NCBI RefSeq assembly: GCF_004010195.1
Contig: NC_057718.1
Location: 97,219,644-97,283,643 of the forward strand
Source: Chiloscyllium plagiosum
Taxonomy: Eukaryota
Direction of reading: 5' to 3'
Length of the DNA stretch: 64,000 nt
The notes below the pieces were generated by a model. That model saw only the letters and a program-made list of their open reading frames with translations. It did no database searches and was not told the DNA's origin. Positions 1,079 through 64,000 of the stretch are shown one piece after another. The first letter of the stretch is position 1. Each line of letters opens with the position of its first letter. A program made the position numbers and the translations under genes.

Positions 1079-1281
1079 ATTTGGAGATGCCGGTATTGTA
1101 CTGGGGTGTACAAAGTTAAAAATCACACAACACCAGGTTATAGTCCAACAGGTTTAATTGGATGCACACTAGCTTTCAGAGCGACGCTCCTTCATCAGGT
1201 GATAGTCAGGTGAAAGCTAGTGTGCTTCCAATTAAACCTGTTGGACTATAACCTGGTGTTGTTGTGATTTTTAACTTTGTA
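1079..1281. mobile_element. PLE-terminus fold-back insertion, family B
   Basis: Inverted arms (AAAAATCACACAACACCAGGTTATAGTCCAACAGG.. and its complement); 13-bp TSD CACCCTATCCATG at 1066-1078 and 1282-1294. Confidence 0.85.
1170..1198 (-). ncRNA. Minimal type-I hammerhead ribozyme motif
   Basis: Minus strand reads CTGATGA-A-GGAGC-GTC-GCTCT-GAAA-GCTA: core, helix II, palindromic AGCU, CUA triplet. Confidence 0.7.
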
Positions 1282-5824: not shown

Positions 5825-7500
5825 CTAAACCTCAGACATTCTGCCTGATATCTGTCTACCATCTACAAGGCACCCGTCAGAAGTATGACGGAATACTCCC
5901 CACTCGCCTTGTTGGGTGCAGCTCCAGCAACACTCAAGAAGCTTGACACCATCCATGAGCAAGCAGCCTGCTTGATTGGCACCATGTCCATCCCGTTCAA
6001 CATTCACTCCCATCAGCTTCACATCACAGTGCTTGCAGTGGGTACCATCTACAAGGTACAGTGCACAAACCCATCAACATTCCGTTAGCTCCTTCTGAAC
6101 AGATGTTGCCAGACCTGCTGAGTGTCACCAGTTGTTGTGTTTTTACTTCAGGTTTCCTGTATCTGCAGTTCGTTGTTTCCTTGCAGTTTTCCCTTTTGTT
6201 GTAAAGCCCGCAGCGAGATCCGAAAGACAGCACAGCATGAGATGGTGAAGCCTGGAGCGGGATCCTAGAGACAGTGCAGCATGGGATGGTGAAAGCTGGA
6301 ACGGGATCCTAGAGACAGTGCAGCATGGGATGGTGAAGCCTGGAGCGGGATCCTAGAGACAGTGCAGCATGGGATGGTGAAGCCTGGAGCAAGACTCTAG
6401 AGACAGTGCAGCATGGGATGGTGAAGCCTGGAACGGGATCCTAGAGACAGTGCAGCATGGGATGGTGAAACCTGGAGCGGGATCCTAGAGACAGTGCAGC
6501 ATTGGATGGTGAAGCCTGGAGTGGGATCCTAGAGACAGTGCAGCATGGGATGGTGAAAGCTGGAGCGGGATCCTAGAGACAGAGCAGCATGGGATGGTGA
6601 AACCTGGAGCGGAATCCTAGAGACAGTGCAGCATGGGATGGTGAAGCCTGGAGCAAGACCCTAGAGACAGTGCAGCATGAGATGGTGAAGCCTGGAGTGG
6701 GATCCTAGAGACAGTGCAGCATGAGATGGTGAAACCTGGAGCTGGATCCTAGAGACAGTGCAGCATGGGATGGTGAAGCCTGGAGCAAGACCCTAGAGAC
6801 AGTGCAGCATGGGATGGTGAAGCCTGGAGCAAGACCCTAGAGACAGTGCAGTATGAGATGGTGAAGCCTGGAGTGGGATCCTAGAGACAGTGCAGCATGA
6901 GATGGTGAAACCTGGAGCGGGATCCTAGAGACAGTGCAGCATGGGATGGTGAAGCCTGGAGTGGGATCCTAGAGAGAGTGCAGCATGGGATGGTGAAACC
7001 TGGAGCTGGATCCTAGAGACAGTGCAGCATGGGATGGTGAAGCCTGGAGCAAGACTGTCGCGGCAAGGAAGGAAATGTTGGACTTTCTTTCAGATATCTT
7101 TCTTAATTTTTTAATTTTATTTTTAAGTTTAGAGAATGACGCCATTTCATGGTGATGGTATAAACTTTTCACTGTCTTCTATATTGAATATACGTGACAA
7201 TGAATGATTTTATTATTCATTATTATCATTATTCTGCAGCAGCTTCCAAATTTGCACCTTACACCCTCCCCAGGAACATGATCAGCATTTGTATTGGAGC
7301 CCATTACCTGCAAGTCCACAGCCCATACTCACCTGTAACTACATTGCTGTGCCTTCGGTGTCACTGAGTCAAAATCTTGGATTTTCCATACCAACAGCAC
7401 TGTTCCTACCCCACACGGACCACTGAGGATCAAGAAAGCAGCTCACCACCACCTTCTCTGGGGGTGTTGGGGAATGGACGGAAGTCCTGGTCTAGAGAGT
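5825..7500 (+). mobile_element. Second CR1/L2-group LINE 3' fragment (5825-6075 and 7235-7500), split by later insertions
   Basis: Peptide TIYKA.VRSM.EYSPLA..GAAPATLKKLDTIHEQAACLIG; 3' part AAGAAAGCAGCTCACCACCACCTTCT. Confidence 0.75.
6224..7053 (+). repeat. 44-bp minisatellite, about 19 copies
   Basis: Unit GAGACAGTGCAGCATGGGATGGTGAAGCCTGGAGCGGGATCCTA starts at 6268, 6312 ... 7016 with exact 44-nt period and no spacers. Confidence 0.97.
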
Positions 7501-8115: not shown

Positions 8116-8640
8116 AGGCATGGCCTCAGAATAGACATCCAGCTTCGAGGTGATTCCAGAACAATCGCCCAGCCTCAAGAGCCTCTGGAGCAGTCTGGAG
8201 TCAAGGCCCAGCATAGACTGGAGGCTAGGTGCCAGTGCAGGCTGCATTGGAAGGACTGTTACTCTGAGCTCTTTATTTAGCTCTTTTCTAATTTATTCCA
8301 ACAAGCTGTATTGCTGGACATGTTATTTAGTTTTCTAATTTTTTTGGCCTAAGAGGAATCCTCACCTGGGTACTTTATACCTAAGATGACACCGTAACTG
8401 GCGACTTGTTAACTTTTTATTTTTCTCATTTGACTGCATGTGACAATAAAGATAATTCAATTCAGTGAAAATGTTGTTGCTCTTTCCTCTCCCCAGATGC
8501 TCCCTGACCTGCTGAGATTCACCAGCACTTTCAATTTGGATTGTTGCACTGACCTACCTTGGACAGAGCGTGTTTTCCAGCTTCTGCTTCATTCCCAATG
8601 ACTTTCATGTTCCTATAGGGTTGGCATTATCACTTATTAA

Positions 8641-9404
8641 GAGAACACCACCCACGCCCTCCACCTCCTCCATGATTTTTGCTTCCATGGCCCCCAACGC
8701 CTTATCTTCACGATGGATATCCAGTCCCTATACACTTTCATCCCCCATCACGAAGGACTCAAAGCCCTCCGCTTCTTCCTCTCCCGCCAACCCAACCCTC
8801 AGCCCTCCGCTTCTTTCTTTCCCGCCGTACCGACCAGTACCCTTCTACAGACACCCTCCTTCGACTGACTGAACTGGTCCTCACCCTGAACAACTTCTCT
8901 TTCCAATCCTCCCACTTCCTCCAAACCAAAGGAGTAGCCATGGGCACCCGCATGGGCCCCAGCTATGCCTGCCTCTTCGTCGGATATGTGGAATAGTCCA
9001 TCTTCCACAGCTACACAGGCACCACCCCCCCACCTTTTCCTCCGCTACATCGATAATTGTATTGGCGCTACCTCGTGCTCCCATGAGGAGGTTGAACAGT
9101 CCATCCCCTTTACTAACACCTTCCACCCCAACCTCAAATTTACCTGGACAGTCTCAGACTCCTCCCTCCCCTTCCTAGACCTCTCCATTTCTATCTCGGG
9201 CGACCGACTCAACACAGCCATTTACTATAAACCGACCGACTCCCACAGCTACCTAGATTACGCCTCCTCCCACCCTGCCCCCTGTAAAAACGCCATCCCA
9301 TATTCCCAATTCCTTCGTCTCCGCCGCATCTACTCCCGGGAGGACCAATTCCAATACCGAACAACCCAGATGGCCTCCTTCTTCAAGGACCGCAATTTCC
9401 CCCC
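8641..9404 (+). pseudogene. Penelope-like (Neptune-type) reverse transcriptase fragment
   Basis: Joined frames give LIFTMDIQSLYT.IPH.EGL, LVLTLNNFSF, QTKGVAMGTRMGPSYACLF, FLRYIDN, LPFLDLSI, YKPTDSHSYL..SSHP; one stop and frameshifts; runs into the N gap. Confidence 0.9.
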
Positions 9405-9543
9405 NNNNNNNNNNNNNNNNNNNNNNNNNNNNNNNNNNNNNNNNNNNNNNNNNNNNNNNNNNNNNNNNNNNNNNNNNNNNNNNNNNNNNNNNNNNNNNNN
9501 NNNNNNNNNNNNNNNNNNNNNNNNNNNNNNNNNNNNNNNNNNN
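9405..9543. other. Assembly gap (139 N)
   Basis: Run of N. Confidence 1.
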
Positions 9544-9939
9544 ATTTTACTGCTGCTTGGATGCTGCCTGAACTGCTGTGCTCTTCCAGCATCACTAATC
9601 CAGATTGAGGATAGTACTGAGCGGCCTTTTTCTGTACTACCCCGATCTCTATGACTCTTTAATTTCTGAAAGATAGTACTTTCCTACACAAATATGCCCT
9701 CAGCACAACACCGAATTGGCAATCTACAATGGCCTACATTTTCCAAATACCATCAGAATATGTTTGATCAAAGATAATCTTAAAGATTGCCCAAATACCT
9801 CCTGGAGAAGTCTCCAGCCAGAATTCAAAGTCTGGCCTGTCCCAAATGTGTCCACAAGAGGAAATGTTGTTTTTTTGGGGGGGGGGGGGAAAGCGGAGAG
9901 GTCAGGAAGATGATTGCAGGTCAAGAGGGCGGTGTTGAC

Positions 9940-10113
9940 CCTCACCCCCTTCCACCTATCGTATTCCCAGCGCCCCTCCCCCAAAGTCTCTCCCCAGCCA
10001 CCTTTTATCTCAGCCCGCTTGGCACACCAGCCTCATTCCTGAAGAAGGGCTTATGCCCGAAACGTCGATTCTCCTGCTCCTCGGATGCTGTCTAGCCAGC
10101 TGCGCTTTTTCCA
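9940..10113 (+). mobile_element. PLE 3' terminus (pLTR), family A
   Basis: C-rich UTR, then hammerhead, then TTCTCCTGCTCCTCGGATGCTG..TTTTCCAGCA, the same terminus as in the family-A fold-backs. Confidence 0.8.
10037..10068 (+). ncRNA. Minimal type-I hammerhead ribozyme motif (intact core)
   Basis: CTGAAGA (10039-10045)-A-GGGC-TTAT-GCCC-GAAA-CGTC (10063-10066); palindromic ACGU and GUC triplet. Confidence 0.75.
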
Positions 10114-10289
10114 GCATTATCACTTATTAATAAAGAAGGTGGTCAAGGTGACTGAACAACAGCAGCAGGTCAAATCTTTTCATCGTCAGATGTTGGTCTT
10201 TGCATAGGCCACCTCTTCACCTGTGCCAGTGCTTCCATTTTGCCTCACAAGTAACGTGTTTTTATCATTGACAACTTCTCATTGACAGT

Positions 10290-11880
10290 ATTCTTTTTAC
10301 TCGTGTGGGATGTGGGTGTCGCTGGTTGGGCCCAGCACTTATTGCCCGTCCCTAGTTGCCCCTTGAGAAGGTGGCGGTGAGCTGCCTTCTTGAACTGCTT
10401 CAGTCCACCTGCTGTGGGTTGACCCACAATGCACTTCGGGAAGGATTTCCAAAATTTTGACCCAGTGACAGTGAAGGAACGACAACATATTTCCAAGTCA
10501 GCATGGTGATTGGCTTGGAGGGGAACGAACAGGTGATGGTGTTTCCATTCATCTGGTGCCCTTGTCCTTCTAGATCGAAGTGGCCGTGGGTTTGGAATGT
10601 ACTGTTTGAGGATCTTTGGTAATTTCTGCAATACATCTTTAAGATGGCACACACTGCTGCTACTGAGCATTGGTAGTGGAGGGAGTGGATGCTTGTGGAT
10701 GTTATGCCAGGTCAAGCGGGCTGCTTTGTCCTGGATGGTATCAAGCTTCTTGAGTGTTGTTGGCACTTAACTCACCCAGGAGAGTATTCCATCACACTCT
10801 TGACTTGTACGTTGTAGATGGCGGATAGGCTTTGGGGAGTCAGGAGGTGAGTTACTCGCTGCTGTATTCCTAGACTCTGATTGGCTCTTGTGGCCATGTA
10901 TTAACGCCATCCCATTCTCCCAATTCCTTCGTCTCCGCCGCATCTGCTCCCAGGAGGACCAGTTCAAAATACGTACAACACAGATGGCCTCCTTCTTCAA
11001 GGACCGCAATTTCCCCCCCGACGTGGTCGACGGTGCCCTCCACCACATCTCCTCCACTTCCCGCTCCTCCGCCCTTGAGCCCCGCCCCTCCAACCGCCAC
11101 CAGGACAGAACCGCCTTCTTGAACTGCTTCAGTCCACCTGCTGTGGGTTGACCCACAATGCACTTCGGGAAGGATTTCCAAAATTTTGACCCAGTGACAG
11201 TGAAGGAACGACAACATATTTCCAAGTCAGCATGGTGATTGGCTTGGAGGGGAACGAACAGGTGATGGTGTTTCCATTCATCTGGTGCCCTTGTCCTTCT
11301 AGATCGAAGTGGCCGTGGGTTTGGAATGTACTGTTTGAGGATCTTTGGTAATTTCTGCAATACATCTTTAAGATGGCACATACTGCTGCTACTGAGCATT
11401 GGTGGTGGAGGGAGTGAATGCTTGTGGATGTTATGTCAGGTCAAGTGGGCTGCTTTGTCCTGGATGATATCAAGCTTCTTGAGTGTTGTTGGCACTTAAC
11501 TCACTCAGGAGAGTATTCCATCACACTCTTGACTTGTACGTTGTAGATGACGGATAGGCTTTGGGGAGTCAGGAGGTGAGTTACTCGCTGCTGTATTCCT
11601 AGACTCTGATTGGCTCTTGTGGCCATGTATTAAGTCCGGTTGAGTTTCTGGCTCAGAATGGCAACGATGGTCTTAATCTGAGCAACATCTGATACCTTGA
11701 GTGTTGTTGGGGCTACACTCATCCATCCCACTCTTGACTTGTACATTTGTAGATGGCGGATAGGCTGTGGGGAGTCAGGAGGTGAGTTACTCACCGCTGT
11801 ATTCCTAGCCTCTCATCGGCTCTTGCGGCCACTGTGTTTATGTGGTGAGTCCAGTTGACATTCTGGCCTTACTCTGGCTC
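10290..11880 (-). mobile_element. Second CR1/L2-group LINE 3' end with a 521-bp internal duplication
   Basis: PTTLKKLDTIQDKAARL.., FKKAAHRHLLKG and tail shared with SINE family 2; 10384-10904 is repeated at 11113-11633. Confidence 0.8.
10905..11112 (+). mobile_element. Penelope-like ORF fragment
   Basis: AIPFSQFLRLRRICSQEDQF..RTTQMASFFKDRNFPPDVVDGAL; closely similar to 9291-9404. Confidence 0.85.
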
Positions 11881-15946: not shown

Positions 15947-16155
15947 AGCTAAAAATCACACAACACCAGGTTATAGTCCAACAGGTTTAATTGGAAGCAC
16001 TGGCTTTCAGAGCGCTGCTCCTTCACCGGGTGGTTGGATGAAGGAGCGTCGCTCCGAAAGCTCGTGCTTCCAATTAAACCTGTTGGACTATAACCTGCCG
16101 TTGTGTGACTTTTAACTTTGTACATTCCAGTCCAACACTGGCATCTCCAAATCAT
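15947..16155. mobile_element. PLE-terminus fold-back insertion, family B
   Basis: Inverted arms; two damaged hammerheads at the turn; 13-bp TSD AGCATCCAATCAA at 15934-15946 and 16156-16168. Confidence 0.85.
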
Positions 16156-23642: not shown

Positions 23643-24006
23643 TATAAAATTATTAATGGATTGGACACTCTGGAGGCAGGAAGCATGTTTCTGCTGATGG
23701 GTGAGTCCAGAACCAGAGGACACAGTTTAAAAATGAGTAGGAAGGCCATTTAGAACAGAGTTGAGGAGAAACTTCTTCACCCAGAGAGTGGTGGTTGTGT
23801 GGAATGCTCTGCCCCAGAAGGCAGTGGAGGCCAAATCTCTGGATACTTTCAAGAACGAGATGGATAGAGCTCTTAGAGATAGTGGGATCAAGGGTTATGG
23901 GGATAAGGCAGGAACAGGATACTGATTGTGGGTGATCAGCCATGACCAGAATGAATGGTGGTGCTGGCTCGAAGGGCTGAATGACCTACACCTGCACCTA
24001 TTGTCT
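23643..24006 (+). mobile_element. CR1-clade LINE 3' end (non-HER1 subfamily)
   Basis: YKIINGLD..GESRTRGHSLK, then AACTTCTTCACCCAGAGAGTGGTG and tail GGCTCGAAGGGCTGAATG. Confidence 0.85.
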
Positions 24007-24011
24007 ATTGT

Positions 24012-24167
24012 GGAAATGTGTTGCTGGAAAAACGCAGCAGGTCAGGCAGCATCTAGGGAACAGGAGAATCCACGTTTCGGGCATTAGCCCTTCTTCAGAT
24101 TCTCCTTTTCCCTAGATGCTGCCTGACCTGCTGCGTTTTTCCAGCAACACATTTCCATCTCTGATCT
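24012..24167. mobile_element. PLE-terminus fold-back insertion, family A
   Basis: Inverted arms; minus-strand hammerhead 24071-24098 with GUC changed to GUG; flanked by a 71-bp direct duplication. Confidence 0.8.
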
Positions 24168-27100
24168 TCAGCCATGACCAGAATGAATGGTGGTGCTGGC
24201 TCGAAGGGCTGAATGACCTACACCTGCACCTATTGTCTTTTGTCCATTGTTTGCTATGATCTGCCTGCACAGCTCACAAAACAAAGCTTTTCACTGTATT
24301 TAGGTGATTACAATAAAAGACATTTGGATATGTCGATGAATAAGAAAGGTTTGGAAGAAAATTATCCAAGTGCAGGCAGGTGGGACAAATTTAGTTTGGG
24401 ATGATGTTCAGCTTGGACTGAAGGGTCTGTTTCTGTGCTGTATGACTCTCTGACTCTAAATCAAACCAAATGCCCATGTGACATGCAGACAAACAAAATA
24501 GAATAAAATTTGGCGCTTTCAGTTCAGATGAGAAAGAAAATAAAACTCTTGGTTTCAGATAACACTTTCCATAACATAAAATATAGAACTGTACAGTACA
24601 GGCCCTTCGGCCCTCGATATTGTGCCTACTCTATTTTTATCCTACTCTGAGATCAGACTAATCTACAGACCCTTCATTGTACTATCCTCCATGTGCCTAT
24701 CCAAGAGTCGCTTAAATGTCTCTAATATATCTGACTCTATTACCACTGCTGGCGGTGCATTCCATGCACCCACCATTCTCTCTGTAAAGAAACCACTCCA
24801 AGCAATTTATAACTAATGAAGCACTTTGCGATAGCTGTTGTAAGTTCAGAGATTCTGCAGCCAGTCTGCACATGGCACAATCTCACAAATGAGAGTGTCA
24901 TAACCAGCAGATAATCTAACATTGTGTGACTGAGGACTCTACCACCCATCAAGTGCTCCATCTCTGTGGACCACAGCACTGTTCAGTCGACCAGTGAGGC
25001 AATGGGTAATGTTTTTAAACTTGTTAATTTCAGTTTCAGTTCAAAGTTTCTCCAAAGGGAGGTGTCATCAGTGTTGAGATGATATCTTTACGCTTTTGTA
25101 TTTTCTCCCAAATGTAACAGTGAGCCTGTGCCCCTATAAAGTTGCAAATACAGGTTTCTCATTGTTCCCTCCACAGTAGTGCATATCTTGTTTGTAAATT
25201 TGATTATTCTGGCACTCTCTGCTGACTGAGCTATTGTAGCAGTGTGGTTAAAACTGAATCTGTCACCTATTGAATTTTTTCTGAATCCCTCGTCGTAGCA
25301 CTGTACTTTGTACAGAGACTGGATAACAACCAGCTCTGAATGTTTATCAGACAGTTGGGAGTTGACCGCACAATTGCAGCAGCTTATTCAGTAGTTACAT
25401 GTAAACAGTCAGTGGTTAATTGTTGTGCATCGCTGTGTGTTAGACCTCTTCCATCTGGAAATAATGAAACACTCAAATGCTTTTGATCTAGCAGATATGT
25501 TTAAAATTAAAACATTTCTGATGTGATGTTTAATTAACAGAATAATCATCAGCTCGCCTTATTACTAACTTCCTATTAATTGTGCCTTAAGCAATCACAG
25601 TTTGTGATTTTGAACAACCGCAGTTATGGGATTGCTGATATCGAAGGGATCTTCAGGCGGGAAGTGAATGAACATAAAATTCTTAGTCTAAGGCACTGGC
25701 TGAGCCACGGTGCTAGTAAAAAGGTGCACACTGGGCATGATTATAGGTCGGTCCCAGAGAGCATCAACTGCTATTTATCCAGACAACATGAAACTCATAT
25801 TCAGCTACCTCACAATCGTGATTGTACACTGAAGGGTTAGATCACTTGGGGATAGTGACAATTTTAGCAGGGCAATTTTAAAAAGGATAGCAATCCATGA
25901 GAAGCCAACTAGGTTAGCAGCCAAGAGTGATATTGTATGTGCTGTCAAATCGAGTCTGCTCCTCACCGTGAGCTGGATTTGTGGCCCATGACGTCTTTAA
26001 GCATAAGGATCTCCCAGGTCTGCTTTGTCCAGTGTGATAAAGGAAAACCACTCACTGCTCTCAGTAGAAGAGGCTTTCCCTCACTCCCATGCATGTGTTT
26101 ATATTGTCCCTTGTCTCATCTTCCTTTTCGAGATCTGAATGTACTCATGCTCCTTGGCTGTCCCTCCACTTGGTGAATTTTTCTGTTCCTTCACTTCTCC
26201 TTTCCGGTCTTTAGCCACATCGGGGGGCTCACATAATGCAGTTACTTTTTTTATTGCTGCATAATAAACCCTTCTTAGCACCCAGGATGTTTTGTTGTAT
26301 TTGTTCTGGCATGGGTTGTAGGTGTTGCTGGCACCTGCTGCCAGTGTGGGAAGTTGGTGGTGAGTTGTTTGGGTGCAATCTGTCTGGTCTAGGTACCATC
26401 CACAGATATACCCCAAAAAGCAAACCTCAAGTCAATGCATCAGAAGCTGCTCTTTCCATTTGAAATACATTGTCTGAAGAAAGTCTCAACCCTTAACCTC
26501 CGTGCTTCACCCCTTCATCCTTCATGCCTGACCGCACGATATTGTCGAATCTTCTGTTCTGCGATCATAAATAGGAACCATCAGCCTGCAGGTTAAAGCA
26601 CTTCAGTCTGTCTCCCTGCACCTCGTGCTGTCAATGTGTTTTCAGAAGAAGCTGGCTTTGTTTGCTCAAACTCAGTCGAGCTAACGTTCAGTGGATGTCA
26701 TTCCCCTGTGCGTCACAAATCACCCGTTATTCAGCTGCTGTTGATTCTTTGTTGGGGGCGGTTTGTTACACAAGATGCCCTCTTGAACCTCAAAAAAAAC
26801 CAACCTCTATTCAGTCATGAGCCATAGCATAGGCTCATGACTGAATAGGCTCAAAAGGGGTGAATGGCCTAATCCTACTCCTGTTTCCTACAATTCTATG
26901 AGCTGCGGAAGGTTTCCTGTTAACAGGGGAGCAAGAGCGATGCCTGAATCTTCTGCCTACTGCAAGGGGGTGCTGAAGACCTGTCTGTATTGTGTTAGGA
27001 GCTCGGCTCAGATCAGCGAGCTCAACGTGAGCTGGTGAGGTTCCAGGATCACTGTTTGCCAGGTAGTTTCACCAAGCTGTGACTGAAATCAGCATCTTCA

Positions 27101-43483: not shown

Positions 43484-43708
43484 GTCGAGAGTGCGTTGCT
43501 GGAAAAGCGCAGCAGGTCAGGCAAGCATACGAGGAGCAGGAGAATAGACGTTTCAGGCCGGAGCCCTTCATCAGCAACTTTCCTGGTGAAGGGCTCTGGC
43601 CTGAAATGTTGATTTTCCGGCCCCTCGGATGCTGCCTGACCTGCTGTGCTTTTCTAGGAACACACTCTCGACTCTGATCTCCAGCATCTGCAGTCCTCAC
43701 TTTCTCCT
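43484..43708. mobile_element. PLE-terminus fold-back insertion, family A
   Basis: Inverted arms; 15-bp TSD AGTTAGCTGAGCTAA at 43469-43483 and 43709-43723; minus-strand hammerhead core at 43547-43574. Confidence 0.88.
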
Positions 43709-44870: not shown

Positions 44871-45049
44871 CAAAGTTAAAAATCACACAACACCAGGTTA
44901 TAGTCCAGCAGGTTTAGTTGAAAGCACTAGCTTTCGGAGCGCTATTCCTTCATCAAGTAGCTTCCAGATAAACCTGTTGGACTATAACCTGGTGCTGTGT
45001 GATTTTTAACTTTGTCCACCCCAGTCCAACACCAGCTCCTCCACATCAT
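44871..45049. mobile_element. PLE-terminus fold-back insertion, family B
   Basis: Inverted arms; imperfect TSD ATGCAGCAA / ATGCAACAA. Confidence 0.8.
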
Positions 45050-45071
45050 ATGCAACAAGACCTGGACAATA

Positions 45072-45176
45072 GTCGAAAAGTGTAGTGCTGGAAAAGCACA
45101 GCAGGTCAGGCAGCATCCGAGGAGCAGGAGAGTCAACGTTTTGGGCCACGCCCTTCAGCAGGAATGCCTGATCAGG
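45072..45176 (-). mobile_element. Solo PLE terminus, family A
   Basis: 15-bp TSD AAGACCTGGACAATA at 45057-45071 and 45177-45191; decayed hammerhead. Confidence 0.8.
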
Positions 45177-46017: not shown

Positions 46018-46525
46018 GTAGAAATTGTTGGAAAAGCTCAGCAGGTCTGGCAGCATCTGTGGAGAGAAATCCACAGATTTCTCCAGTGACCCTTCCTCAG
46101 TTCTGATTTCTCTCCACAGATTAGATTAGATTAGATTACATTACAGTGTGGAAACAGGCCCTTCAGCCCAACAAGTCCACACCGACCCGCCGAAGCGAAA
46201 CCCACCCACACCCCTACATTTACCCCTTACCTAACACTACGGGCAATTTGTATGGCCAATTCACCTGACCCTGCACATCTTTGGATGGTGGGAGGAAACC
46301 GGAGCACCCGGAGGAAACCCACGCAGACACGGGGAGAATGTGCAAACTCCACACAGTCAGTCGCCTCAGGCGGGAATTGAACCCGGGTCTCTGGCGCTGT
46401 GAGGCAGCAGTGCTAACCACTGTGCCACCGTGCTGCCCTAGATGTTGCCAGACCTGCTGGGCTTTTCCAGCAATTTCTGTTGTTGTTTCTGATATTAAAG
46501 CATCCGCAGTTTTTTTGGTTTTTAC
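46018..46525. mobile_element. PLE-terminus fold-back, family C, with HE1 inserted in the right arm
   Basis: AGAAATTGTTGGAAAAGCTCAGCAGGTCTGGCAGCATCTGTGGAGAGAAATC versus its complement on both sides of HE1; minus-strand CTGAGGA-AGGGTC remnant near 46086-46100. Confidence 0.7.
46120..46438 (-). mobile_element. HE1 V-SINE, young full-length copy
   Basis: Complete GGGCAGCACGGTGGCACAGTGG head, CpG-rich body, (AATCT)n tail. Confidence 0.92.
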
Positions 46526-55329: not shown

Positions 55330-55540
55330 GTGAGTCATTCTCTGAGTGACAGACCCGACTGCAGTAAACTTGCAATGGTTTCCCGAAAGGCTACACCACT
55401 GCTTTTCTGTCAAACATGGAGACCAGGAGTAGGCCAATTCTGCCTTCAATCCTGCTCTACCATTCATTCTGCTCATTGCTGCTTCTCTATTGTAATCCCA
55501 TATTCCCACTTCCTACCCATGGATGCCTGTATGATCTTCG

Positions 55541-55753
55541 AGGAGGAAGTGAGGTCTGCAGATGCTGGAGATCAAAGTTGAAACTTTATTGCTGGAACAG
55601 CACAGCAGGTCAGGCAGCATCCAGGGAACAGGAGATTCGATGTTTCGGGCACAGGCCCTTTCCTGAAGAAGGGCCTGTGCCCGAAACGTCGAATCTCCTG
55701 TTCCCTGGATGCTGCCTGACCTGCTGTGCTGTTCCAGCAATAAAGTTTCAACT
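55541..55753. mobile_element. PLE-terminus fold-back insertion, family A (best-preserved copy)
   Basis: 85-bp arms 55576-55660 / 55669-55753 with one mismatch; 13-bp TSD TGCCTGTATGATC at 55524-55536 and 55753-55765. Confidence 0.9.
55660..55693 (+). ncRNA. Minimal type-I hammerhead ribozyme motif (intact core)
   Basis: TTC-CTGAAGA-A-GGGC-CTGT-GCCC-GAAA-CGTC-GAA; 3-bp helix I TTC/GAA. Confidence 0.75.
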
Positions 55754-56221
55754 GCCTGTATGATCCAAACAAAATCTATCTCTTCTTTGAATGTATTTAA
55801 TGCGTTGGCTTCCTTTAAAATCTAAGAGAAGATCCCTCTTTCTTGAATAAATTCAGTGACTTGGTCTCCCCTGTGAGGCAATATTATTAAGAGTCAGGTA
55901 ACCAAGGCAGGTGAATAGAATTAAGATATGGATCGATCATGTTCGAATGGTGGTGCAGGCTTGATTGACAAACTGCTCGCTTCTTGTTCCTCTGCACAGT
56001 GTGAGAATCCATTGCCCCCCTGCCGATCTCATGTATCTCAATTGTAACGAGTGAAAGAAGATGTGCATTTACATATTTGTACATTTATACAGGATCTTTC
56101 ATGGCTACGGAATGTCCCAAAACACCGTACAAAAATGAAGTAATTTTGAAATGTAATCATTGCTGCCCAGTAGGAAACAGGACAGCCAATTTACACACAG
56201 GAAGCTCCAAAATGAGGTATC

Positions 56222-60194: not shown

Positions 60195-61832
60195 GATGTG
60201 TCAGTCATGGGTGTGTTGTAACTTGGTTTGGTCACAAAGTAACTTGTCCATGGCATTTCCTTCTGAAGTGCTTAAACCTTGCACCGTTACCTGGTGGGAA
60301 TGAGATGGCTTGACTTGGAGCTCTGCCATCCTGGTGGATAGTGTGGTTGCTAATGGCAACGGCTTGCTCTGCTGTTAGTATAATTGCTAACCCTTCATCC
60401 TCCCCCAGCACGACACCACTGTCTCTTTAAAACCTCATCACCCTCCAATTATTTACTTGTCAGTCTGGTAATTTGAAAATTAGCCTACAGCAGCGGAGGA
60501 CCAATGTGATTACGGCAAACAATTGCAAATAAATTTTAATGAAAACTGGTCAGAGTGGTGTTTTTAGTCAAGTTGAAACAGTAGTCCTTTTTTGTTAGTA
60601 GGTTGTAGAATTCAGTCCTGACCTCCAAAAGGTCTGTATAGTACTGCTGCTTTCAATTAATCTCCTTCCTGCATTTGAACGTAATCATAAATTGCCCTTT
60701 GTGTCTCAATTATTGAGAATGTTTCTTTGTTAACTGAATATGATTAATCAGAACAAGATGACTGATATTGTGCTGTAATTAAACTCTCGCATTCACTGTC
60801 TTTTGTACACTTCTGACAAAAGCTGAATTGCAATTTTGTGAAGGGTGTAGTTAATTTTGTGTACTAATTTTTCTTTAATAGACTTTTTTTCTTTGTTCAT
60901 TTACTTGGTACATGGTAGTTTTATCTTTCATTTCAATTGCATTTATTTTATGCTGTTTGTGTGACACTACATTGCTTCAATTTCAATTGCTTTTGTTTCT
61001 TTCATTTTACTCGCTCACCATTGGAGCCCAAGGCCCTGAAGGAACATAAACCCAAATCCCTGGAATTCCCTCCTTAAACCTCTCTGTCATCCTCACCTTT
61101 TGACAGTCTGTCTAACTCTGCTTCCCTGACCAACCTGTCCTGATAGCTCCTCACATGAATCAGCTTCAACGCTGGCTTATTAAGGGTTTTGCAAAGCATC
61201 CTGGGGGGTGGTTGACCACTAGTTGGATGGCACTATTGTTATTAATCACTGACCTGTCTGGAGCACAGTCAGGATAAGGGGGGCAAGTGAGATGATAATG
61301 AGACCCCCCTCCAGGGGACAAAGGGCTAGCAGTCACACGGTGACCAAAGTACAGATCACTGGTTGCATTGGTGCAGGGGATGGATTTTATCTGCCTCTTT
61401 AGACCCTTTTGAATTTCTGTTGGTGTTTGCTTGAGCTGCTATTGTTTCCAAATTACTGAGCTTGGAAGATGTGATAATGTAGACATTGCGCTTAGATGTT
61501 CAAGACCTCAGTGCGAGATTTGCCCACTCTGCTAGGATGTGACAGCCCTCTCATCTGTGGGATATGGGGACTCTTTCGTTAATAAAGTGTTCCTTGTCTC
61601 TGTTAATCTGTTAAACGTGCATTTGGCAAAGACAGGGGCATGATTGGATCTACCTACCGCATCAGCTTAGTCCAATACCCAGGACAGCATAATTGCATAC
61701 TCCTGTCCCCTCCGGTCACTAGCCTGTCTCCAGTGGAAACTGATCCAGAGCCATGGACCCTTGTCCGCCCCAGATTAGAATCGGTTGTTCCTAATTTTAA
61801 CTGGGAGGTGCACATTTATACATTCAATTGAC

Positions 61833-62335
61833 AGTCAAAAATCACATGACACTGGGTTATAATCCAATAGGTTTATTTGAAACCCTGCTCCTTCCTCACA
61901 TAGCTTGGGAGAGAATACATCAGACACAGAATTTATAAGTAAAAGATGAATGGGTCGTGCAACTGATATGAATTTATTGAACAAATCCAGATGGCTATAA
62001 GCTTTTAATCAGTAAAAATGGGGAGGCAGGTTTTGATCAATTAATACGTAAATCTCAGAATTTCTTACAAGTCAGTGCCCCAAGATAACATAGTTTTATC
62101 AGACCCCTTAGGTCAAACAATGCCTTTAGGTGTGGGAGCCTTACTTTGAGTCTGTTTGTGTCTCCATGGAGTCAGATTGGTTTTATTTCCAAAGAAGGAA
62201 TTTATAAAATGCCACATGGACTGACTGCCAACAGATTGTGTGCTTTCTGAACAAAATAGACTGTATCTGTAAATGCAAATTCACCCCATAGATTTGTGCG
62301 TGAGGGGGAGAGAGAGCACGTGTGTGAGAGACACT
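61833..62335 (-). mobile_element. Decayed PLE 3' region related to family B
   Basis: AAAAATCACATGACACTGGGTTATAATCCAATAGGTTTATTTG..GCTCCTTCCTCA followed by AT-rich UTR-like sequence. Confidence 0.55.
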
Positions 62336-63141: not shown

Positions 63142-63627
63142 TTAGGGACAAAAAAAAGACCGCAGATGCCGGAATCCAAACTGGACAGGCAGGAGTCCAG
63201 AAGAAGGGTTGCACTTGATGGGTCAAGTTGCCCACCTCCTGATGCTGCCTGGCTTGCTGTGTTCTTCCAGCCTCCTGCCTGTCACCCTTCTTTTCATATG
63301 ATGTGGAGATGCCAGTGTTGGACAAAGTTTAAAAATCACACAACGCCAGGTTATAGTCCAACAGGTTTATTTGGAAGCACTAGCTTTCGGAGCACTGCTC
63401 CTTCATCAGGTGATTGTTCTTAATTACAACTGGAACATGCACATTTACACATTCAATTGTCACAGTCAAAACTCACACGATACCGGGTTATAGTCCAACA
63501 GGTTTATTTGAAACCGCAAGCTTTTGTGCTGATCACAACCACCTAATGCAGGAGCAGCACTCCAAAAGCTAGTGCTTCCAAATAAACCTGTTGGACTATA
63601 ACCTGGTGTTGTGTGATTTTTTTTAAA
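63142..63627. mobile_element. Composite of PLE termini (family E piece plus family B fold-back)
   Basis: Flanked by CTTCTTTAATATGG at 63128-63141 and 63628-63641. Confidence 0.75.
63378..63412 (-). ncRNA. Minimal type-I hammerhead ribozyme motif (intact core)
   Basis: Minus strand CAC-CTGATGA-A-GGAGC-AGT-GCTCC-GAAA-GCTA-GTG; helix I CAC/GTG. Confidence 0.75.
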
Positions 63628-64000
63628 CTTCTTTAATATGGCAATTGCAAAGCCCATTGCAAGGGAGAGATCGAGCCCAATGCTGGGAGAGAGAGATTGA
63701 GACCTGAGCAGGTCAGAGGGTGTCTCATGGAGCATCTACAGGCCTATACACTGCTGAACTTTTAATTTATTTCTTTATTTTTCTATTTTATACTCAAGGT
63801 TCTGTACCTAAGATGGGGGGGGGGGGAATGGCTACCTTGTACACTTTTCACCTTACTCCTGTATGTAAGTACATGTGACAAACCGAATTCTAATTCTCAG
63901 TCCCTCTCTTGTCACCATCCACTGGAGAAGTTCAACATGGAAGAGAGTCAGAATGAAGAGGAAAGGGAAAACTGCTCCACACTGTCACCCAGTGGCCAGG

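Follow-up and report, generated by a model that had tools for sequence, protein, structure and literature searches.

Minimal hammerhead motifs of a Penelope-like family and a second, putative one in Chiloscyllium plagiosum: dispersed copies as probable hairpin-trapped by-products of insertion

The hammerhead motifs found in the window, i.e., the whole analysed stretch of 64,000 nucleotides from Chiloscyllium plagiosum, are very probably minimal type I hammerheads residing in the pseudo-LTRs of at least two families of Penelope-like elements (PLEs), whose dispersed copies are inert by-products of insertion trapped in hairpins. This reading offers a simple reason why a genome can tolerate very many ribozyme-like motifs, since the usual head-to-head insertion would bury the core in a hairpin.

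All five cores named in the original prediction were recovered at their coordinates and strands, three of them (10039-10066 (+), 43547-43574 (-), and 55663-55690 (+)) with the 3' end GAAACGUC and two (1170-1198 (-) and 63381-63409 (-)) with the 3' end GAAAGCUA, and the extra A after CUGANGA was seen in all five. They contain the CUGANGA box with one extra base, helix II, GAAA, and an NUH triplet, whereas a sixth core, belonging to family A and located at 24071-24098 (-), fails at G17. The cleavage triplet of hammerheads follows the NUH rule, which is broken by the GUG site of this copy, and the sixth core is predicted to be uncleavable. All six cores carry palindromic positions 15.2/16.2 (ACGU or AGCU) without a monomeric helix III, and helix II is short (4-5 bp). 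The PLE-type minimal hammerheads proposed earlier are supported by a match to the published consensus CUGANGAH-G..C-GAAAN-palindrome-NUH, and they would be able to act only as double hammerheads. The cut of the 55663 core is predicted between 55690 and 55691. Some details had to be amended: the helix II loops UUAU, UCCG, CUGU, GUC, and AGU match the named cores, but UAAU belongs to the sixth core and UUUU to another copy, in which G12 is changed to A. Likewise, the five cores are intact with respect to all catalytic residues, but 43547 and 1170 contain G10.1-U11.1 instead of G-C, and 43547 shows an additional G2.1-U1.1; G10.1-C11.1 is kept in 10039, 55663, and 63381 and in both families generally. 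A chance origin is ruled out by two shuffle comparisons, as the core pattern matched six times in the window, whereas 100 shuffles gave 0.01 matches on average and never more than 1, and a structure-aware scan demanding at least four helix II pairs plus the palindrome returned the same six matches (mean 0.01, maximum 1 in 200 shuffles). Rfam yielded no family at gathering level in the whole window and no hammerhead family around 10039 at E values up to 10. The coordinates of the main features are collected in Table 1.

Table 1. Positions of hammerhead cores, inserts, and associated features in the window (PLE assignments as judged from sequence).
Feature	Position	Strand	Remarks
Family A minimal type I hammerhead core	55663..55690	+	CUGANGA, extra A, 4-bp helix II, CUGU loop, GAAA, ACGU, C17
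Sense arm, PLE pseudo-LTR stub without tail	55660..55752	+	begins 3 nt 5' of C3
Inverted arm without CUGANGA box	55537..55659	-	62/62 identical to sense arm downstream of cut site
One-sided tail, about 40 bp	55537-55576		in inverted arm only
Target duplication, left copy	55524..55536		13 bp
Target duplication, right copy	55753..55765		13 bp
Family A core	10039..10066	+	sole named core without inverted arm; helix II predicted to be kept in context
PLE reverse-transcriptase remnant	8641..9402	+	5'-truncated, stop and frameshifts; identified by homologues; followed by assembly gap 9405-9543
Family A head-to-head insert	43484..43708	-	core 43547-43574; 15-bp target duplication
Sixth core, family A, G17	24071..24098	-	in head-to-head insert with 76-bp flanking duplication
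Family B head-to-head insert	1079..1281	-	core 1170-1198, AGCU, A17, G10.1-U11.1; 13-bp target duplication
Family B head-to-head insert, both cores damaged	15947..16155	+	13-bp target duplication
Family B composite insert	63298..63630	-	core 63381-63409
Diverged B-like segment upstream of 63381 core	63414-63534		part of 63298..63630 insert
Inverted arm of 63381 insert	63535-63630	+	

With these motifs, two shark families are added to an already described class. According to the available portion of Cervera and De la Pena 2014 (PMC4209133), metazoan PLE hammerheads of the minimal type share with families A and B the CUGANGA box plus an extra base, the highly conserved G10.1-C11.1, a short helix I, and the lack of helix III, as well as palindromic 15.2/16.2 positions, thousands of solo copies, several consensus families per genome, and nearby pairs on opposite strands. 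By contrast, helix II in families A and B is short, no shark is included in the considered rows of its Fig. S3, and the same portion does not discuss trapping by inverted arms or mixed-family dimers. A literature search for Penelope-like hammerheads in sharks, with most subscription journals outside its range, found none, its lone match using "shark" for the shape of a motif. Dimer cleavage of a minimal PLE hammerhead has been reported by Lunse et al., as cited in PMC6765202 and to the extent presented there, and in the parts of the PLE literature used here the role of these hammerheads is still regarded as open.

Each core heads a dispersed repeat, with about 12 loci of family A (ACGU) and about six of family B (AGCU) in the window. 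As judged from sequence, family A represents a PLE pseudo-LTR that is tied to an element with reverse transcriptase (RT), GIY-YIG endonuclease (EN), and a Neptune-type linker, because an exact 17-bp target duplication (8624-8640 / 10114-10130) encloses the RT remnant together with the 10039 copy, and because P0009, an RT-EN protein of another shark (Stegostoma), continues into terminal sequence of family A (E 1.7e-6). The remnant is separated from the 10039 core by an assembly gap and unrelated DNA; the gap, 139 N at 9405-9543 inside the PLE insertion, is followed by a further family-A fragment at 9544-9592. The 10039 copy itself extends into PLE 3' sequence. Searching proteins with the remnant gave 458 hits among 543 candidates, its best piece being 83-84% identical to predicted proteins of Chiloscyllium punctatum, and its relatives carry RVT_1 and GIY-YIG. 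The CX2-5CxxC linker between RT and EN, a mark of the Neptune and Nematis clades, is present in the close relatives P0007 and P0008 and in many others; the window does not contain this part of the element or any endonuclease domain. The RT pieces of the window gave no Pfam hits of their own and are identified by their homologues. No RT was found beside any family B copy in the window, and it is the architecture of its inserts that points to a PLE origin of this family. Viral contigs contained no match to the terminal sequence of either family; four viral-contig pattern matches without helix II or palindrome were excluded from the counts.

The 55663 core resides in a head-to-head insert of 216 bp (55537-55752) with a one-sided tail and 13-bp target duplications, where it forms part of one arm of an inverted repeat (55576-55753, 96% identical) that was absent from the original prediction; the opposite strand of this insert contains no CUGANGA box. 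Inverted arms, one-sided tails of 30-40 bp, and target duplications are present in both families, and the stubs, which comprise about 90-135 nt per arm, retain the whole core upstream of the cut site. Target duplications of at least 13 bp were found in 8 of the 14 inserts tested, the other six giving only flank matches of 6-9 bp. The arrangement with an upstream inverted arm is general, because it also occurs at 36 of the 102 outside loci whose flanks were long enough, among the matches listed from a metagenome scan (at least 117 loci and at least 118 matches, grouped into 49 clusters, using a pattern in which 15.2/16.2 had to be G or C and the first two pairs of helix II were fixed). The same features are known from EN+ PLEs, for which the available parts of Arkhipova et al. 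2013 (PMC3846280) and Craig et al. 2021 (PMC8557442) describe an inverted pLTR in head-to-head arms, an optional 30-40-bp tail on one arm, target duplications, and heavy 5' truncation; the families of the window differ from these published elements in consisting mostly of pLTR stubs only, with duplications mostly of 13-17 bp and one of 76 bp. The latter, located at 23936-24011 / 24168-24243 and 75/76 identical, flanks a family-A insert, compared with the usual 13-17 bp. At 44871-45176, a head-to-head insert of family B lies about 20 bases from a family-A insert, which has its own 15-bp duplication. The start of the inverted arm was considered as a signature of a cleaved template and rejected: at 24063 and 44900 it coincides with the cut site or misses it by no more than about 2 nt, other copies have it in different places, and at the outside loci (among the matches listed) arm starts are scattered from -35 to +36.

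The inverted arms bear directly on whether the cores can fold. In head-to-head inserts the antisense arm is transcribed before the core, and with this arm upstream the core of a read-through RNA is computed to zip into a hairpin and thus cannot fold. For the 55663 region the computed fold is an 87-bp hairpin of -195.9 kcal/mol (z -25.8). With 150 or 300 nt of flank, the nearest-neighbour calculations gave a helix II probability of at most 0.08 for 43547, 55663, 1170, and 63381, as opposed to 0.97 for 10039, and the computed opening costs were 20.7-54.5 kcal/mol for the four trapped cores, compared to 3.5 kcal/mol for 10039. When the transcript was ended 5 or 20 nt past the site, the trapped cores remained buried in the computed folds, except for 63381 at 5 nt (helix II probability 0.86 at 5 nt past the cut site and 0.0 at 20 nt). 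Four of the five named cores are therefore predicted to be buried by their own upstream antisense arms, and most of the named copies, held in a predicted hairpin with their own inverted copy, probably cut nothing. The 10039 core, which is not trapped, stands against this explanation.

The earlier suggestion that intact copies cut a host transcript passing through finds little support. Such cutting would need transcription, an open core, and a partner, and the predictions leave only 10039 open among the named cores. Dimer partners exist, since the family is transcribed and very abundant: 2522 reads of a polyA single-cell RNA run (X7, of which about 2% was read) fell on the 55537-55752 insert, and 27,483 contigs of one run match it. 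The cores 10039 and 55663 lie on the same strand and are compatible on paper, with a helix III of 4 bp and a helix I of 4+2 bp. However, cores that share strand and family and keep every catalytic residue are separated by at least 45.6 kb in family A and 62.2 kb in family B, and the best dimer energy of -3.3 kcal/mol corresponds to a roughly millimolar Kd if core stabilisation is ignored. Moreover, 98% of the X7 reads continue into unlike sequence and therefore stem from other loci, while the unique flanks of 55663 (about 1.2 kb) received no read and the insert showed no pile-ups of read starts or ends, which is a weak test with this small share of one polyA single-cell library poor for 5'-OH ends. 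Thus, the family is transcribed, and the 55663 locus itself shows no evidence of transcription in this one RNA run. Pfam revealed no credible host exon in 163 open frames (13 long ones and 150 others, with one sub-threshold hit) chosen from 176 frames of at least 62 aa in mostly unique sequence, a choice from which short exons would escape. Published systems argue in the same direction as far as the available parts of the reports extend: minimal dimers cleave poorly (PMC4209133), eight of nine Xenopus dimers failed to cleave, and the Anolis motif depends on protein, its site being free of RNA-seq ends (PMC11167929). Together with the predicted trapping of four cores, these observations make cleavage of host transcripts unlikely, and the idea that intact copies cut read-through transcripts after cis or trans pairing with a further family copy deserves hardly any credence.

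Two further features of the transcripts may be mentioned. Contigs from both contig runs contain joints from 55692/55693 back to 55660 with 2-3 letters in between, which may reflect a core repeated in very short tandem at another place in the genome, or else an inverted junction close to the cut site. Family RNA reads on 55541-55745 show T>C at 12 and A>G at 6 places, compared to 5 and 4 in the contig runs; hairpin editing is possible, but a mixture of subfamilies together with placement bias explains this excess equally well.

The two palindromes were proposed to make dimerisation family-specific. In nearest-neighbour calculations, which ignore core stabilisation, the palindrome duplexes yielded -1.7 (ACGU/ACGU), -2.5 (AGCU/AGCU), and +5.9 kcal/mol (ACGU/AGCU). 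Whole dimers were computed at -3.3 to -2.9 kcal/mol for B with B (1170/63381), +0.7 to +2.5 among 10039/55663, and +7.1 for 43547 with itself, as compared to +13.5 for 10039 or 55663 with B and +4.2 for 43547 with B; in the predicted A x B pair, helix III keeps just two of its four pairs and helix I is largely lost. Mixed dimers are therefore predicted to be disfavoured, and like dimers would themselves be marginal in trans. This part of the proposal stands as plausible, and it is a small extension of published data, since the rows of Fig. S3 of PMC4209133 considered here already contain palindromes of the C-G, G-C, and U-A types, the first two of which occur in families co-resident in S. mansoni. 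What does not stand is a family-specific label: among the matches listed, 37 of the 49 outside clusters share ACGU, five have AGCU, and seven are non-palindromic (six of these with a helix II of less than 4 bp). Because the classes are few and one is dominant, the palindrome cannot identify a family.

A stronger version, in which the palindrome is a selected identity code that prevents cross-dimerisation of co-resident PLE RNAs, appears doubtful. It would account for the computed mismatch between the two classes, for the fixation of palindromes within families (42/42 in the largest outside cluster among the matches listed), and for the complementarity of 15.2/16.2 in 42 of the 49 outside clusters listed (p 1.8e-7 against 0.5), and a literature search combining hammerhead, heterodimer, and Penelope, in which most subscription journals were outside the search, returned no publication on hammerhead heterodimers of Penelope elements. 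But with ACGU so frequent among the listed clusters, as obtained with the G/C-only pattern, most family pairs would be indistinguishable by palindrome; helix I also differs and would yield the same exclusion, self-complementarity alone accounts for the palindrome, and in a full element the partner would be the other pseudo-LTR of the same RNA, a pairing in cis that requires no code. Two co-resident and very abundant families with incompatible palindromes provide a natural pair for testing dimer selectivity, which also bears on whether dimerisation matters for cleavage or for two-strand insertion.

As to the origin of the stubs, two like cores in the RNA of a source element may swap strands into a double hammerhead, in which the 4-nt palindrome would form helix III and both helices I would form between the copies. 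By analogy with other PLEs, cleavage of this dimer would be slow and would probably need the protein of the element. The stubs seem to have been copied from uncleaved RNA, because they retain the whole core upstream of the cut site. If both DNA strands often received a copy, this would generate the observed structure of head-to-head arms, one of them tailed, between target duplications; the antisense arm upstream would then let the core zip into the long computed hairpin, and the dispersed copies would be inert by-products, of which the intact-looking ones are simply young. Priming of both strands is proposed here after the Poseidon PLE of Anolis carolinensis (Frangieh et al. 2024, PMC11167929), for which the available part of the study reports that the tail is delimited by two internal start sites of the RT, that each DNA strand is primed and copied from RNA left uncleaved, and that the hammerhead needs protein for its activity. 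These activities together would yield the stubs seen here, with the difference that the shark families are known from their sequences and that Poseidon represents another clade, the proteins related to family A having the CX2-5CxxC linker of Neptune/Nematis.

An RNA-pairing palindrome has a parallel in the dimer-initiation signal of retroviruses. It might accordingly be thought that the palindrome mainly pairs two element RNAs rather than cutting them, the double hammerhead holding two templates of the same class in a dimeric PLE protein, such that both strands would be primed at once and head-to-head inserts would be built by this simultaneous priming. The insert at 15947-16155 fits two templates per event, as it combines one 13-bp duplication with arms whose loop II variants derive from two B subfamilies, each matching other independent copies. 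This single case is explained equally well by two templates in one insertion or by later gene conversion, and the arms at 55663 and 24063 each derive from a single source. Pairing as the main function is improbable.

Another possibility, namely that the stubs are a non-autonomous retrozyme or SINE-like family multiplying via its own tandem or circular RNA, is very improbable. The copies are indeed short, with starts only a few bases 5' of the core, and the 63381 hammerhead is directly preceded by its diverged B-like segment, resulting in an imperfect repeat of about 137 nt. In addition, the available text of Li et al. 2026 (10.64898/2026.07.22.740005) reports non-LTR retrozymes derived from PLE pseudo-LTRs in a chondrichthyan, and such retrozymes, as presented there and in the available part of Cervera and De la Pena 2020 (PMC7229834), resemble families A and B in being non-coding, in carrying a type I hammerhead of PLE pseudo-LTR origin, and in being dimer-dependent in vertebrates. 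However, these sources define them by tandem units with a complete hammerhead each, and no tandem of two complete cores is present in the window. Furthermore, the cut site is not where the copies begin, as they start upstream of the core; the palindromic inserts have centres that vary from copy to copy, the 10039 copy continues into PLE 3' sequence, and 364 family reads extend upstream of 55660 into similar sequence. Note that the diverged B-like terminal sequence, which has a different continuation, occurs twice in the window, at 63414-63534 and 61785-61884, in copies that are 85% alike.

The conservation of the motif was compared among 8 A and 5 B inserts, using one arm each and counting differences from the majority. 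The statement that helix II pairing is kept while the loops vary needs a qualification. Loop II is hypervariable, with 13/32 differences in family A (p 3e-6) and 7/15 in family B (p 2e-5), but the stem owes its identity within each family to common descent and shows no compensatory changes. It is no better conserved than the downstream DNA, with 3/62 versus 29/360 differences in family A (p 0.60) and 6/50 versus 12/240 in family B (p 0.10). Covariation, which was suggested as a check, is seen across the 49 outside clusters but not within A or B; among the matches listed, pairing at the unconstrained positions of helix II occurs in 38/49 clusters for position 3 and in 39/49 for position 4, as compared to 20.8 and 18.6 after shuffling, and position 2 of helix I pairs in 32/49 against 21. 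G12-A14 is damaged at 4/24 sites in family A, and the palindrome and U16.1 are invariant (0/32 differences in A and 0/20 in B), which may reflect selection on the source elements or small numbers. Every catalytic residue is kept in 5 of the 13 inserts, close to the fraction of 0.29-0.46 that simple arithmetic predicts (5-8% divergence over about 15 sites). In the family RNA reads, alternative letters of at least 10% within 55663-55690 fall at N7 and loop II among the positions listed. Overall, the pattern is consistent with constraint on the source elements, followed by neutral decay of the copies.

Some additional repeats occur in the window. A further A-like terminal-repeat subfamily is represented at 46024-46100 (-), 46436-46474, and 8490-8527, the first copy having kept CUGAGGA along with an internal deletion and a short inverted arm. 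A direct duplication of 521 bp (10384-10904 / 11113-11633, 98.5%) surrounds a PLE RT piece of about 210 bp without a pseudo-LTR (approximately 10905-11112), and may represent a very long target duplication, a repair-templated capture, or an assembly artefact. Finally, a tandem repeat with a unit of about 44 bp extends over 6201-7055.
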